64,000 bases of DNA from Gammaproteobacteria bacterium. GTDB taxonomy: Bacteria > Pseudomonadota > Gammaproteobacteria > Eutrophobiales > Eutrophobiaceae. Position 1 is the first letter of the stretch; each line of letters begins with the position of its first letter. Position numbers and translations under genes: made by a program. The stretch is taken from positions 848,639-912,638 of the forward strand of contig OZ245888.1 of assembly GCA_965229565.1 (NCBI GenBank), given 5' to 3'. Shown here piece by piece: positions 10,709 to 15,826 of the stretch. A model generated the notes under the pieces. The model saw nothing but the letters and a program-made list of their open reading frames with translations, was not told where the DNA came from and made no database searches.

Positions 10709-11557
10709 TTGAACCCGACCTTATATATAGTTGCGACTCCAATCGGCAACCTTGGCGATATCAGCCAGCGTGCCATCGAAGTCCTTAAAGCAGTGGACCT
10801 GATCGCAGCCGAGGATACCCGCCACAGTAAAACACTGTTGCAATCTTTTTCGATAACAACACCTGTACGTGCCTATCATGAGCATAACGAGGATGAGACC
10901 ACGGCCAGGCTGATCGAGCAACTTGTGGCGGGGCAATCGATCGCCCTGATCTCGGATGCCGGTACACCATTAATCAATGACCCGGGATATAAACTGGTTG
11001 CAGCAGCACTGGAAAAACGGATTGCCGTCGTGCCTGTGCCGGGTCCCTCGGCGATTATCGCGGCCCTGTCTGTTGCGGGCTTGCCCACACATCGTTTTGC
11101 CTTCGAGGGGTATCTGCCGGCAAAAACCACAGCGCGCAAAAAGCTATTGCAGAGTCTGATAAATGAAACCCGTACACTGGTTTTTTATGAAACGCCCCAT
11201 CGTATACGCGATGCACTGGAGGATATGCAGTCGATATTCGGCGCACAGCGCAGGGTCAGTGTTGCCCGCGAACTGACCAAGCAGTTCGAACAAGTGGTCC
11301 TTGCCCCGGTTACCAACATCATCGCCGATCTTGCCGATGGTTCCATAACCAGCAAGGGTGAATTCGTTGTCGTCGTTGAGGGTGCGGCAGACAGCCCGGC
11401 CGATGACGAAGAGGTAAAGCGTGTGCATGAAATCCTTGCCACGAAACTCAGTAGCAAGGATGCCGTACTGCTAACGACGAAGATTACCGGGCGTAACAGG
11501 AACGACGTCTACAAGCTGGCCCTGGAAGCGACGGATAGAACAGCTGTGGATAAGTGA
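10709..11557 (+). CDS. rsmI: 16S rRNA (cytidine1402-2'-O)-methyltransferase RsmI
   Basis: The tetrapyrrole-methylase-like core LYIVATPIGNLGDISQRAIEVL matches the E. coli RsmI N-terminus. The ORF-track start at 10541 overlaps lpoA, so the start was reset to the in-frame TTG at 10709 just before LNPTLYIV. The start codon is uncertain. Confidence 0.8.
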   Translation: MNPTLYIVATPIGNLGDISQRAIEVLKAVDLIAAEDTRHSKTLLQSFSITTPVRAYHEHNEDETTARLIEQLVAGQSIALISDAGTPLINDPGYKLVAAALEKRIAVVPVPGPSAIIAALSVAGLPTHRFAFEGYLPAKTTARKKLLQSLINETRTLVFYETPHRIRDALEDMQSIFGAQRRVSVARELTKQFEQVVLAPVTNIIADLADGSITSKGEFVVVVEGAADSPADDEEVKRVHEILATKLSSKDAVLLTTKITGRNRNDVYKLALEATDRTAVDK

Positions 11558-11671
11558 TTAATAAGCCGCTTATAGTTTTGCTGGCCAGGTTATTCATGAC
11601 AAATAGAGTTAAGTAAGCCATATTTTGGTCGCTATATGATCATAGTGATCACTTTAAAATTCTTGAACGCG

Positions 11672-12001
11672 ATGAAGTCAACACGCAAATATTTAATATT
11701 GCTGTTATTCCTGCCGCTGGTCAGCAAGGCCGATGTCAACCGTGTATTCATTACCGGTATTGACCTCCTTGACTATTGCCAGCAGAGCAGTAATTTTTGT
11801 TTCGGCTATGTGACGGCCGTGGTGGATGACACCAGCATGATTTACGGTGAAGGTGCCAGTTTCTGTTTGCCCGCCGATATCAATGCCGAGCAGTTGCAGC
11901 AGGTTGTAATCGAGTACATGGAAAATCGGCCGCAGCAGTTACATTTGCCCGGCCCCGACATTGTGAACCTCGCACTGACCACTGCCTATTCCTGTCCCTA
12001 G
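11672..12001 (+). CDS. Small secreted cysteine-containing protein of unknown function
   Basis: The start was chosen at MKSTRKYLILLLFLPLVSKA (signal peptide, predicted cleavage after SKA); the ORF track began 12 codons upstream. The mature protein is ~90 aa with 4 Cys. No family recognised. Confidence 0.5.
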   Translation: MKSTRKYLILLLFLPLVSKADVNRVFITGIDLLDYCQQSSNFCFGYVTAVVDDTSMIYGEGASFCLPADINAEQLQQVVIEYMENRPQQLHLPGPDIVNLALTTAYSCP

Positions 12002-12037
12002 TACCAGTGCAGTAACAGCCAAAGTTCATTATTATCC

Positions 12038-12469
12038 ATGCCTATGGATAATTTTGTGCTGGATAGCAAACTGGATTCTGACTGCATCACCATCGCCGAA
12101 TGGGATGATTGCCTGCTACTGCTGATGAATAATGCCCTGGTCCCGTGGTTTATCCTGGTTCCGAAGACGCGGGCGACCGAGCTTTTTCAGCTTGATCACG
12201 AACAGCAACAATTGTTGCAACAACATATTGATGCGTTGTCACAGTTCATTCTTGGGCACTTTGACGTGACCAAGATTAATATTGCGACCATCGGTAATGT
12301 GGTGTCCCAGCTGCATGTACACGTAATAGGCCGTAGTCCGGAAGATTATTGCTGGCCGGGAGTGGTCTGGGGAAGGTCAGAATCTGAACCCTACCAGCCT
12401 GATGCCATGATACGAATCTGCGCCGCGGCCCGTAAGAAATTAAATCTTACCTCTGATACTTATGATTAA
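12038..12469 (+). CDS. HIT-family (histidine triad) nucleotide hydrolase
   Basis: 143 aa with the histidine-triad motif QLHVHVIGR near the C-terminus. Confidence 0.7.
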   Translation: MPMDNFVLDSKLDSDCITIAEWDDCLLLLMNNALVPWFILVPKTRATELFQLDHEQQQLLQQHIDALSQFILGHFDVTKINIATIGNVVSQLHVHVIGRSPEDYCWPGVVWGRSESEPYQPDAMIRICAAARKKLNLTSDTYD

Positions 12470-14151
12470 CTGAGTAGTCGCAGGACGTTCTGTGGCTGGA
12501 TATTGGCCTGGGCAATGATCGCATTACTGGCACGTTGCAGGATACTGCTACGAGTCAGGGCAAGTGTCTCCTTGGCAAAATCGGTATCGAGTATGCGCGA
12601 ACGTGCAGCCGAAATATTCTCCGACGTGGTAGCCACGGCGGTAATAGCGATGTCCATGCGATTCATTGCTGCACCCAGTTTGGCGCGCTCGCTATCGATG
12701 GCCGCCAGTGCGTCATCAATCGTCTGGATCGCTCCTTCCGCTGCATCGACGACATCCAGCGTGTCGACACCCAGTGCCGAGCTGGAAATGCGTCTGGTTG
12801 AGATGGAAATGGTTTGCCCGGCCTCGGCACCAACCTGGAAGTCCAGGGTCTCGTTAGTTTCCAGAGAGATCAGGTTTGGCCAGGTTTCAACAAAGAATTC
12901 CAGTGGGTCGGTCGTGTAGTTCGCGGTATCCGGGATAGTGTTTGCCCATGAAGTATCACGTGCGCCACCGTCGGCGTCATTACCGCCAATGGCGCCGGTA
13001 TCCGCGACACCATCAGCCAGGTCCATGGTGCCGATGAACGCGGCGCCGTTGTTCCTGAATGCCGTTACAAACTCGTCCGCGGTCGTTACGCCGGTAACAG
13101 CACCAGTTGCGAAATAATCATCCAGTGTTCTACTGGTGTCTGCCGATAAATAGGCCAGCATATCTCTTACACCGTTGCCACCAATTTCAGAATGCAGGTA
13201 GCGGGTTGCGGCATATGCGGTAGCGTAATCCAGGTCACTGCCGCTCCAGGCAGTTTGAATATTATCAATGTTATTTGCTACATCATTGGCAGTGTAACCG
13301 CCGGTTGTCAGTACGTTATTCAGGCGCGCATCACCTCCTGGAACGAACTCAGCCACACCCTCGGCAAACCAGATATTGTTACTTGCCATATCAGCAAAGT
13401 TGGTGGTGACGGCCATGATGGCATGTGTCATTTCATGTGCGATTAGTTGATCCAGTGCGTCATCCTGCACGTCAAGCAATGGGGCCAATTCGTTCACATC
13501 AATATGCAGTTCCAGGTTCATCAGCGTGGTTGAACCGGTACCAGTGACATAGGCAGAAGCACCTGCAATATCGTCGTCCAGGATGATTTTAAGTTCAACA
13601 TTGGTTCCTGTTAAACCAAGGTAGTTTTGAATAATGTCTTCGCTTTGTTCGAGCCACGACGTGCGAAGTTTATCGATAATCGCTTCTTTTTCTGCAAGCA
13701 GCATTACCGGCGAGCCGCCACTACCGCTGGGGCCACCTGTAAACAGTTGCTTGCCATTAAAACTGGCCGTTTGCGTGATGCGTTCTATTTCTTCAACGAT
13801 TTGATTGATCTCTGCCTGCAGGCTCTGGCGATCCGTGGTGCCGTTGGTGCTATTGTTGGCCTGCAGTGCCAGCACCCGTCCTCTTTGCAACAGGTTAGTG
13901 ATCTCCTGCATGGACCCCTCGGCGGTTTGCAACATGGAGACCGCGTCGTTCATATTCCGCTGTGCCTGGTTTAGACCGCGTACTTTGGTGGTCATGCGTT
14001 CTGAGATCGCCAGGCCAGCGGCATCATCACGCGCGCTGTTCACACGCATGCCGCTGGATAAACGCTGCAGCGTACGCGACATCGCATTGCTGGATGTATT
14101 CGCTTTTCGCTGCGCGTTTAGTGACATGACATTGGTATTAATCTGTAACAC
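12466..14151 (-). CDS. Flagellin with an embedded zinc-metalloprotease domain (proteolytic flagellin / flagellinolysin-like)
   Basis: The N-terminus (MLQINTNVMSLNAQ...RLSSGMRVNSARDDAAGLAISERM) and C-terminus (...ARSRILDTDFAKETLALTRSSILQRASNAIIAQANIQPQNVLRLLS) are canonical flagellin D0/D1 regions. The central region contains HEMTH (aa 239-243; CAT GAA ATG ACA CAT read on the minus strand at 13423-13437), followed ~25 aa later by FAEGVAEF. Confidence 0.8.
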   Translation of the reverse strand: MLQINTNVMSLNAQRKANTSSNAMSRTLQRLSSGMRVNSARDDAAGLAISERMTTKVRGLNQAQRNMNDAVSMLQTAEGSMQEITNLLQRGRVLALQANNSTNGTTDRQSLQAEINQIVEEIERITQTASFNGKQLFTGGPSGSGGSPVMLLAEKEAIIDKLRTSWLEQSEDIIQNYLGLTGTNVELKIILDDDIAGASAYVTGTGSTTLMNLELHIDVNELAPLLDVQDDALDQLIAHEMTHAIMAVTTNFADMASNNIWFAEGVAEFVPGGDARLNNVLTTGGYTANDVANNIDNIQTAWSGSDLDYATAYAATRYLHSEIGGNGVRDMLAYLSADTSRTLDDYFATGAVTGVTTADEFVTAFRNNGAAFIGTMDLADGVADTGAIGGNDADGGARDTSWANTIPDTANYTTDPLEFFVETWPNLISLETNETLDFQVGAEAGQTISISTRRISSSALGVDTLDVVDAAEGAIQTIDDALAAIDSERAKLGAAMNRMDIAITAVATTSENISAARSRILDTDFAKETLALTRSSILQRASNAIIAQANIQPQNVLRLLS

Positions 14152-14189
14152 CAGGCTTACACCTAAAAAATATTTTCCTTGTAAGCAGC

Positions 14190-14216
14190 TTATCGTCCAT
14201 TTCTGTGAATTTTTTA
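14190..14216 (-). promoter_or_regulatory. Sigma-28 (FliA) class-3 flagellar promoter for the flagellin gene
   Basis: The minus strand reads TAAA-N15-GACGATAA, against the consensus TAAA-N15-GCCGATAA. The -10 element ends ~39 nt upstream of the flagellin ATG at 14151. Confidence 0.6.
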
Positions 14217-14297
14217 GACCTGGCAGGATAAAAACTGGCCGGTAATGGCCAATATTCGGTTCAAGTGTTTATTAATTCAGGTAAATTTCAAAAAACC

Positions 14298-14325
14298 TTG
14301 CAACTTCTCGCTCTGCCCATACACT
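14298..14325 (+). promoter_or_regulatory. Sigma-70 promoter of rnpB
   Basis: TTGCAA (14298-14303), a 16-nt spacer, then TACACT (14320-14325). The predicted +1 is ~7-9 nt downstream, coinciding with the start of the P1 stem. Confidence 0.5.
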
Positions 14326-14333
14326 CTTAGCCG

Positions 14334-14670
14334 AGAGTCGGCCAGGCAGTCGCTGTTGGCCTTGGTCAATAGAGGAAAGTCCGGGCTCCACAGGGCGAGG
14401 TGCCAGATAACGTCTGGACGGCGTGAGCCGATGGAAAGTGCCACAGAAAATATACCGCCTGCTTGCAGGTAAGGGTGAAATGGTGTGGTAAGAGCGCACC
14501 GCGCTGCCAGCAATGGCAGTGGCAGGGTAAACCCCACCGGGAGCAAGACCAAATAGGGAAACAATGGTGTGGCCCGCACTGTTTCCGGGTAGGTTGCTAG
14601 AGGTGTACGGTGACGTGCATCCCAGATGAATGATTGCCTTCGACAGAACCCGGCTTATCGGCCGACTCTT
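14334..14670 (+). ncRNA. rnpB: RNase P RNA (bacterial type A, M1 RNA)
   Basis: Contains the universally conserved AGGAAAGTCCGGGCTCCACAGGGCGAGGTGCCAGATAACGTCTGG, AAGGGTGAAATGGTGTGGTAAGAGCGCACC, and ACAGAACCCGGCTTATCGGCCGACTCT. The 3' end pairs with the 5' AGAGTCGGCC (P1) and is followed by a T-run. The sequence aligns with E. coli M1 RNA across all conserved regions. The ORFs called here on both strands are spurious. Confidence 0.9.
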
Positions 14671-14695
14671 TTTTTTTAACTACACGAGGATAACA

Positions 14696-15136
14696 ATGCA
14701 TTGGAAAGTTTATTTATCCGGTGAGATACACACCGATTGGCGAGAACAGATCGAGCAGGCCGTCAACAAACTTGAGCTACCCGTCAGTTTCTATTCTGCC
14801 GTTACCGAACACGAGGCCAGTGATGCCGCCGGGGATCACCTGGCACCAACGAGTACTGGTTTCTGGCGCGACCACCAGTCTGCCAGGGTGAATTCAATAC
14901 GAACAAAGAACTTGATTGAGAAGTGTGATATCGCTGTCATTCGCTTTGGCGAAAAATACAAGCAGTGGAATGCGGCCTTTGATGCCGGTATGTGCGCGGC
15001 CCTGAGTAAGCCGTACATTACTTTACACGATGAAGCGTTAGTACATCCACTGAAGGAAGTGAATGCAGCCGCACTGGCCTGGGCGCAGTCACCGCAGCAA
15101 GTCGTTGATACCCTGCAATACGTGGTTGCCGCATGA
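14696..15136 (+). CDS. YtoQ-family protein (nucleoside 2-deoxyribosyltransferase-like fold)
   Basis: The start was reset to MHWKVYLSGEIHTDWRE (ATG at 14696, GAGGA RBS at 14686-14690). The sequence resembles Bacillus YtoQ (xxKVYLAGEIH...FGEKYKQWN..HHPLKE). The ORF-track start lay inside the rnpB terminator. Confidence 0.55.
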   Translation: MHWKVYLSGEIHTDWREQIEQAVNKLELPVSFYSAVTEHEASDAAGDHLAPTSTGFWRDHQSARVNSIRTKNLIEKCDIAVIRFGEKYKQWNAAFDAGMCAALSKPYITLHDEALVHPLKEVNAAALAWAQSPQQVVDTLQYVVAA

Positions 15137-15495
15137 CCGAAGCTGACAATCGCGATGCCGAGCTGCGTGAGGCAATCGACACCGTCAGCCAGGCGTTCTC
15201 CGACGGGCGTCATGCGGAGGCATTGTTGCTACTACGGCCACTGGCCGATGCCGGTGTGGCCGAGGCCATTGGCATGCTGGCGCTTGCCTATCAACGTGGT
15301 GCCGGTCTTGAAGCCGACGGTGAAAAGGCGATCGAGTTGTTCCTGAAGGCGATAGACATGGGCGACGCCGTTGCCGCCTATCATCTCGGTATGCTTTATA
15401 AGACCGGGATGCCGGGTATAGAGGTTAACTTGAAGCTTGGCGAGGAGTACCTGCAGCGGGCAAACGAGATGGGACTGGAATTGCCAGCACAATAA
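15133..15495 (+). CDS. Sel1-repeat (TPR-like) protein
   Basis: Two to three Sel1-type repeats (AIGMLALAYQRGAGLEADGEKAIELFLKAIDMGDAVAAYHLGMLYKTG). The start codon overlaps the YtoQ stop (ATGA), suggesting co-transcription. Confidence 0.6.
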   Translation: MTEADNRDAELREAIDTVSQAFSDGRHAEALLLLRPLADAGVAEAIGMLALAYQRGAGLEADGEKAIELFLKAIDMGDAVAAYHLGMLYKTGMPGIEVNLKLGEEYLQRANEMGLELPAQ

Positions 15496-15796
15496 CGGCG
15501 CACTCCCGTGCGGGGGGGCTGATCAGCAATATCACCTGTTGTCGCTTACTGAGCCCTGAATAAACTGGCCGCCACGCTTATCTAACTGATTCAGTAGAAA
15601 ATAGATACCCGGGCGGTAGCGGCGGATCGATGTCGGATTCAGAGTTAAAGTATTACATTAACAAACAGTTTAAAGATAATGATATAAAGAACAATAGTTG
15701 CTTGTTAATTCTGATAGAACAGCGTAAAACATAAATTTTGAGCGCTAAGTTACTGTTAAAAAGAGGGTTTTTAATAGAAAAAATTGCAAAGAATCC

Positions 15797-15826
15797 TTGA
15801 CAGCAAAGTCTCCAAATCCCTATAGT
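15797..15826 (+). promoter_or_regulatory. Pmra, the strong sigma-70 promoter of the dcw cluster
   Basis: Near-consensus TTGACA (15797-15802), an 18-nt spacer, then TATAGT (15821-15826), directly upstream of mraZ. Confidence 0.65.

Follow-up and report, generated by a model that had tools for sequence, protein, structure and literature searches.

The window analysed here is a stretch of 64,000 nucleotides (nt) from contig OZ245888.1 of a Gammaproteobacteria bacterium (positions 848,639 to 912,638), and the gene under study lies on its minus strand, between rsmI and rnpB. This gene very probably encodes a flagellinolysin, in which the D0/D1 ends of a flagellin flank a gluzincin zinc endopeptidase and which would co-polymerise into the filament as a minority subunit, its expression being timed by FliA. 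Flagellinolysins were described in 2017, when Eckhard et al. (PMC5595980) reported a gluzincin metallopeptidase in the hypervariable region of 86 flagellins representing 74 species. The window gene is a routine member of that family, already known through a curated hidden Markov model and a GenBank label. The coding sequence, its domains and its signals are as follows.

12466–14151, minus strand: flagellinolysin coding sequence, 561 amino acids (aa), GTG start, TAA stop (open reading frame (ORF) list, NCBIfam NF033876).
14190–14216, minus strand: sigma-28 (FliA)-type promoter motif, TAAA-N15-GACGATAA, ending 38 nt 5' of the GTG.
14160–14164, minus strand: Shine-Dalgarno-like AGGTG, 8 nt 5' of the GTG (sequence inspection).
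13732–14151, minus strand: N-terminal D0/D1 helices, aa 1–140 (Pfam Flagellin_N, AlphaFold2, flagellin matches in the PDB).
13012–13716, minus strand: predicted gluzincin metallopeptidase core, aa ~146–380, replacing the D2/D3 hypervariable region.
13423–13437, minus strand: HEMTH zinc-binding/catalytic motif, H239, E240 and H243, verified by script as CAT GAA ATG ACA CAT.
13345–13371, minus strand: WFAEGVAEF motif, aa 261–269, with E264 as putative third zinc ligand, A267 as 'basement' residue and E268 as second conserved Glu.
12964–13002, minus strand: DTGAIGGNDADGG motif, aa 384–396, nearly invariant in the family and with invariant columns in the orthologue alignments.
12469–12741, minus strand: C-terminal D1/D0 helix, aa 471–561 (Pfam Flagellin_C; AlphaFold2 helix 471–560).

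The protein differs by a single substitution, M150T, from two GenBank entries of 561 aa (MEQ8428619.1 and MEQ8795557.1; 560/561 positions, 99.8% identity), both of which are entitled "MAG: flagellinolysin [Gammaproteobacteria bacterium]", MAG standing for metagenome-assembled genome. The window's 561-aa form returned no exact match in an exact-sequence look-up, and a 553-aa form starting at Met9 did return one. This shorter form is the gene call of the European Nucleotide Archive on a 2.71-Mb contig with identical neighbours, and it omits the conserved N-terminus MLQINTNV (14127–14151, minus strand). The upstream GTG is the favoured start: it is kept in the closest relative (locus L001, see below), it is used in the 561-aa NCBI call, and Pfam Flagellin_N aligns from residue 4 onwards. 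The G+C content of the gene (52.7%, as against 49.8% for the whole window) gives no evidence of recent transfer. The ORF coordinates and motif positions of the original prediction, which had been made from this DNA alone, proved exact when compared with the ORF list and checked by script.

Flagellin ends, peptidase insert and putative active site

The two ends of the protein are those of a flagellin, as had been predicted. Pfam Flagellin_N (PF00669) covers aa 4–139 (E = 4.5e-42) and Flagellin_C (PF00700) aa 475–560 (E = 4e-22), and the sequence matches in the PDB are exclusively flagellins, restricted to these two ends, with E values down to 1e-61. In the full-length AlphaFold2 model, for which the input was a family alignment of 53 sequences (mean predicted local distance difference test score, pLDDT, of 82.7), helices 8–32, 40–98, 105–128 and 471–560 flank a compact, high-confidence insert. 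The assignment to the proteolytic flagellins was borne out by the NCBIfam equivalog NF033876 'flagellinolysin', which scores 344 bits against a cutoff of 205 bits and aligns over its whole length (1–384 of 384) with aa 111–492.

When the full-length model was used as a fold-search query it returned flagellin filaments only, D0/D1 dominating the comparison, and the insert (aa 146–470) was consequently re-modelled alone (pLDDT 89.3, predicted template modelling score 0.84). The best structural matches of this second model align ~195–205 residues at 3.4–4.2 Å, and the predicted fold is that of a gluzincin (thermolysin-like), nearest to the clostridial collagenases' peptidase domain. The original prediction had staked its interpretation on a metallopeptidase fold in the insert, and such a fold is what the model indicates over the aligned residues. 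Sequence identity to the M9 collagenases (ColG, ColH, ColT and the Grimontia hollisae collagenase) is ~14–15%, and unlike them the window protein has neither an activator nor a collagen-binding domain. Flagellinolysins are reported to lack the collagenase Gly-Gly motif and to leave collagen uncleaved (PMC5595980).

The HEMTH motif is followed by a second conserved motif, whose glutamates are candidates for the third zinc ligand. A profile of the central domain matched ColG in the PDB (E = 0.019), pairing HEMTH with HEYTH and WFxEGxAEF with WFDEGTAEF. The offsets of this alignment are consistent with the zinc ligands of ColG, which we take to be His523, His527 and Glu555, and on that basis the ligand would be the Glu directly preceding Gly, here E264. 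The pair E264/A267 also agrees with the E-x-x-A pattern Glu262/Ala265 of FliA(H), the flagellinolysin of Clostridium haemolyticum (PMC5595980). The residue mapping relies on this pattern and on the ColG alignment because neither FliA(H) nor HgrFlaMP, the flagellinolysin of the betaproteobacterium Hylemonella gracilis, was found among the retrieved family proteins when sought by published motif positions. We infer that the third zinc ligand is E264, 21 residues past H243, and that the Glu at +25 is E268, part of an ExxAE motif. The original prediction was thus right about the presence of FAEGVAEF (aa 262–269 by script), and the ligand it had placed at about +25 is moved to +21 by the ColG alignment. 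The spacing itself is not diagnostic, since family members have values between 17 and 32, most often 18.

The residues of both motifs are very widely conserved. In an alignment of 197 family sequences, where denominators vary by column, H239 and H243 are each kept in 186 of 191 sequences, E240 in 184/190, W261 in 191/194, E264 in 189/194, G265 in 193/195, A267 in 192/195 and E268 in 180/195, and the complete H-E-H-E set is found in 182 of 189. HExxH is intact in every orthologue spanning those columns, and orthologues at 51–90% identity keep the catalytic residues, so that the conservation expected for H239, E240, H243 and the downstream Glu is found both in orthologues and in the family at large. 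The seven remaining sequences (P0130, P0133, P0136, P0156, P0161, P0168 and P0181) have degenerate sites, for example with RAQS or RARS for H-E-H-E; they are full-length proteins of 540–600 aa and may be catalytically dead 'pseudo-protease' flagellins.

Another conserved element lies C-terminal to the protease core. The DTGAIGGNDADGG motif follows the pattern D-T-G-x-I-G-G-x-D-A-D-G-G, with D384 kept in 180/184 sequences, G386 in 184/187, G390 in 168/185 and D392 in 149/182. It is possibly a Ca2+-binding loop and would then be relevant to the reported calcium dependence. The motif is not mentioned in those parts of the flagellinolysin papers that were consulted (PMC5595980, PMC7643111). In FliA(H), a Ca2+ site near the active site is formed by Asp206 and backbone carbonyls (PMC5595980). 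In the window protein, a conserved Asp, D218, lies 21 residues ahead of H239, the position being Asp in 127 and Asn in 36 of 179 sequences.

Family, genomic neighbourhood and promoter motif

The family is large. Used as the query of an exhaustive HMMER search, the insert retrieved 313 cluster representatives (50% identity) at E ≤1e-3 and 212 at E ≤1e-10, most of them proteins of 540–600 aa in which the domain starts near residue 150, and a scan of species-representative genomes gave at least 189 flagellinolysin loci. Some longer proteins also carry a flagellinolysin-type domain (P0096, 987 aa; P0132, 907; P0144, 876; P0169, 1235; P0176, 1101), and in several of them it is placed unlike in flagellins, for example at residues 616–892 of 907. 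Among the matches listed, the closest relative of the window protein is L001, from an uncultured gammaproteobacterial MAG (72–73% identity), followed by L002 (55%), by the Methylophaga-like/Piscirickettsiaceae MAGs L003–L006 (~50%), by the Methylococcaceae MAG L007 (46%) and by Sedimenticola L008 (44–46%). The remoter relatives in the same list are from Bacillota, Nitrosomonas, Massilia, Methyloversatilis and Hylemonella (35–41%).

The genes around the flagellinolysin gene were assigned by eye, with Pfam run on ten uncertain ORFs, and the nearest ones are given below.

10742–11557, plus strand: rsmI (Pfam TP_methylase and RsmI_C).
11636–12001, plus strand: Rap1a-like gene, 121 aa (Pfam Rap1a, type VI secretion immunity, E = 5.5e-18).
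12038–12469, plus strand: HIT-family gene, convergent with the flagellinolysin gene.
14334–14673, plus strand: rnpB, divergent from the flagellinolysin gene (Rfam RF00010, 348.7 bits).

In full, the gene order in the window is sspAB, rapA, lpoA-yraN-diaA-dolP, rsmI, the Rap1a-like gene, the HIT gene, flagellinolysin and rnpB, and beyond rnpB a YtoQ-family gene, a Sel1-repeat gene, the whole dcw cluster, lpxC, secA, pilBCD, clpB, sucCD, pilSR and a pilin gene. With permissive settings, Rfam detected rnpB alone in 11500–15800. The placement of the gene between rsmI and rnpB, and its isolation from flagellar clusters within the 64 kb, agree with what had been described from the sequence and are confirmed by Pfam, Rfam and the gene list. 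The flagellinolysin and HIT genes overlap by 4 nt at 12466–12469, where a TTAA supplies the stop codons of both, so that an intrinsic terminator would not fit between the two. No type VI secretion or effector gene was recognised near the Rap1a-like gene in the window gene list. The YtoQ-family (nucleoside 2-deoxyribosyltransferase-like) and Sel1-repeat genes occupy 14630–15495 on the plus strand, between rnpB and mraZ, and are found at the same place in L001.

The order in L001 is that of the window (dcw, mraZ, Sel1, YtoQ, rnpB, flagellinolysin, rsmI). The interval between rsmI and flagellinolysin holds the Rap1a-like and HIT genes in the window (11557–12466) and a gene for a 328-aa RsgA-type GTPase in L001 (11270–12256), whose interval lacks the Rap1a-like gene. 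The interval is thus variable in its content and flagellinolysin is a stable resident beside it.

As a rule, genes of this family seem to lie apart from flagellar clusters. At 39 of 44 loci no flagellar gene or second flagellin was detected by tblastn within ~10 kb, the 44 being those of 80 loci (L001–L080) whose two flanks each span 8 kb or more and the queries being gammaproteobacterial, with lower sensitivity for Bacillota. The gene is therefore an 'orphan', as the original prediction had it, but not an unusual one, and the H. gracilis gene is likewise reported to lie outside any flagellar cluster (PMC7643111). Copies inside flagellar clusters do exist. In L003 the order in the polar flagellar cluster, read by eye, is flagellin, flagellin, flaG, fliD, fliS, flagellinolysin, fleQ/S/R, fliEFGH, and in L008 flagellinolysin lies between flgL and another flagellin. 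These in-cluster copies indicate that the site beside rnpB is a derived relocation common to the window organism and L001. After L001 and L002, the copies of L003–L006 and L008 are the nearest full-length relatives of the window protein (46–52%), with equal motifs; they differ in lying inside polar flagellar clusters, and the window copy in being relocated beside rnpB with a sigma-28-type promoter of its own.

This promoter motif, TAAAAAATTCACAGAAATGGACGATAA (14216–14190, minus strand), has one mismatch to the consensus TAAA-N15-GCCGATAA. It is the only site in the 64 kb with at most one mismatch, against a chance expectation of 0.26 per window, which corresponds by simple arithmetic to a chance of ~4e-4 for a correctly oriented site in the 180-nt upstream region. 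The -10 element ACGATAA and the GTG start recur in register in L001, amid flanking sequence that has diverged. Across the family, a sigma-28-like site (≤2 mismatches, within 200 nt upstream) occurs at 32 of 76 loci as against 63 of 2000 random windows (~3%). Most of these sites end 27–45 nt ahead of the start, and in many betaproteobacterial loci variants with three mismatches recur at that position. The promoter assigned to the gene in the original prediction thus stands as a motif. The in-cluster copies of L003–L006 have no good sigma-28 consensus upstream, and relocated or orphan copies tend to have a sigma-28-type promoter of their own. The L003 copy begins ~10 nt past the preceding small ORF, in a fliS/fliT-like region, which suggests that it is co-transcribed with that ORF. 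A terminator-like hairpin of G and C with a run of T (14234–14253, minus strand) lies directly 5' of the sigma-28 -35 element in the window, between the flagellin promoter and rnpB. It was rejected as a terminator, as the count of such sites in the region equals the expectation from shuffled sequence and the hairpin is not conserved in L001.

Proposed function and alternatives

The following scenario is proposed for the window protein. A late-class promoter read by FliA (sigma-28) would time its expression to the export of filament subunits, despite the site beside rnpB. The D0/D1 helices would mediate export through the flagellum's type III system as well as polymerisation into the filament core, and the gluzincin insert would be displayed on the filament surface, with zinc probably held by H239, H243 and E264, E240 acting as general base and A267 forming a hydrophobic floor beneath the metal. 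By analogy with FliA(H), the protein would most likely co-polymerise, in minor amounts, with structural flagellins whose genes lie elsewhere in the 2.7-Mb genome, which would also be expected to encode the flagellar apparatus. The outcome would be a filament with broad-specificity extracellular protease activity.

Two characterised systems serve as models. FliA(H) of C. haemolyticum is an active protease, sensitive to ethylenediaminetetraacetic acid (EDTA) and to the E234A substitution, and is located on the filament surface; it ranks second in abundance among filament proteins, and its activity co-sediments with filaments (PMC5595980). The window protein resembles it in having flagellin N- and C-terminal domains around a gluzincin peptidase, in the HExxH motif with a downstream Glu and an Ala three residues later, and in matching NF033876. 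The differences are that FliA(H) has a Gram-positive host and a gene inside a flagellar cluster, neither of which applies here, that its His-to-Glu spacing is 25 instead of 21, and that its activity and filament display are demonstrated, whereas those of the window protein are presumed. HgrFlaMP is a broad-specificity Zn peptidase that depends on Ca, with 784 cleavage sites mapped in peptides and 206 in proteins (Eckhard et al. 2020, PMC7643111). It shares with the window protein a proteobacterial host, a gene outside a flagellar cluster (as also at L079), the domain order and the motifs. It differs in being betaproteobacterial and biochemically characterised, in its insert (~38% identity, L079) and in its neighbours, a NUDIX hydrolase and a MarR regulator. 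The view of the original prediction that proteobacterial members are poorly characterised, with no substrate or role known, consequently holds for the role but not for activity and substrates.

Several observations weigh against this scenario. No other flagellar gene or structural flagellin was recognised in the 64 kb, by eye or with Pfam on the ten ORFs. When the FliG of L003 was used as a query, none of its 120 best matches, all at least 78% identical to it, lay on the gene-bearing contigs, which is no evidence that FliG is absent. The scenario extrapolates activity and incorporation into filaments from homologues that are at most 40% identical in the insert. The Foldseek matches of the insert in the PDB are weak (best E = 0.064), and so is the match to Pfam Peptidase_M9 (PF01752), which reaches 20.7 bits, under the gathering score of 26 bits, and covers aa 238–334 alone. 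This last result nevertheless fits the view of Eckhard et al. that flagellinolysins are a discrete family far from M9 (PMC5595980). The use of the flagellinolysin D0/D1 as a probe for flagellins of the same genome was abandoned, as the co-resident flagellins of L003 and L008 are 59–65% identical to it, no nearer than pairs from different genomes.

A comparison with the orthologue at the same place in L001, which is 73% identical, bears on the alternatives. The proportion of synonymous differences (pS) is ~0.8, which is saturated, and the ratio of the nonsynonymous proportion (pN) to pS is ~0.2. For the N-terminal D0/D1, the protease core and the C-terminal D1/D0, pN is 0.10, 0.16 and 0.22, respectively. 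Every part of the protein is under purifying selection, which argues against a relic and suggests, indirectly, that both ends continue to serve in export and assembly.

In one alternative, the protein would be secreted as a protease and would not form part of the filament, D0/D1 serving as an export signal and the protein being released or its insert clipped off. The H. gracilis authors raise this option, and recombinant HgrFlaMP cleaves itself near the domain borders (PMC7643111). A Gly/Ser-rich linker of low confidence (aa 141–150, pLDDT <50 in the AlphaFold2 model) precedes the insert in the window protein, and here, as at the 39 family loci mentioned above, the gene stands apart from those for flagellar structure. 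Nevertheless, the conservation of the whole D0/D1, most marked in its N-terminal part, goes beyond the needs of an export signal alone, and the abundance of the C. haemolyticum homologue in filaments, together with the sedimentation of its activity, points the other way, so that a secreted protease seems unlikely. There is a similarly small chance that, after relocation, the protein became the sole flagellin, forming an all-protease filament, or a soluble protease exported by the type III system and timed by the flagellar regulon.

It is far less likely that the insert is catalytically dead, an adhesin or structural outer domain in which HExxH is a relic. Inactive variants probably exist in the family, as the seven degenerate sequences indicate, but the window protein retains H239, E240, H243, E264, A267 and E268, as do its orthologues at 51–90% identity, and its protease core is under the constraint given above. 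Least probable of all is a silent or decaying gene, horizontally acquired and functionless in a variable intergenic block, which the differing rsmI–rnpB interval, the patchy distribution of the family and the lateral transfer suggested for it (PMC5595980) might recall, but which is at odds with an intact ORF, a position kept in L001 despite saturated synonymous sites and at a low pN/pS, a -10 element and GTG start conserved there, a normal G+C content and nearest relatives, among the matches listed, that are gammaproteobacterial copies.

A filament-borne protease thus remains the favoured interpretation. With flagellinolysins, the filament becomes a large protease assembly displayed at the surface, for which roles in nutrition, biofilm remodelling, attack on the flagella of competitors and immune evasion have been proposed. 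The window gene leaves the picture of the family unaltered and adds to it one more member from an uncultured, marine-type gammaproteobacterium, with all catalytic residues intact. What it contributes for the family is modest: flagellinolysin genes lie mostly outside flagellar clusters, many have a sigma-28-type promoter of their own, and this clade allows the gene's move out of an ancestral flagellar cluster to be followed.

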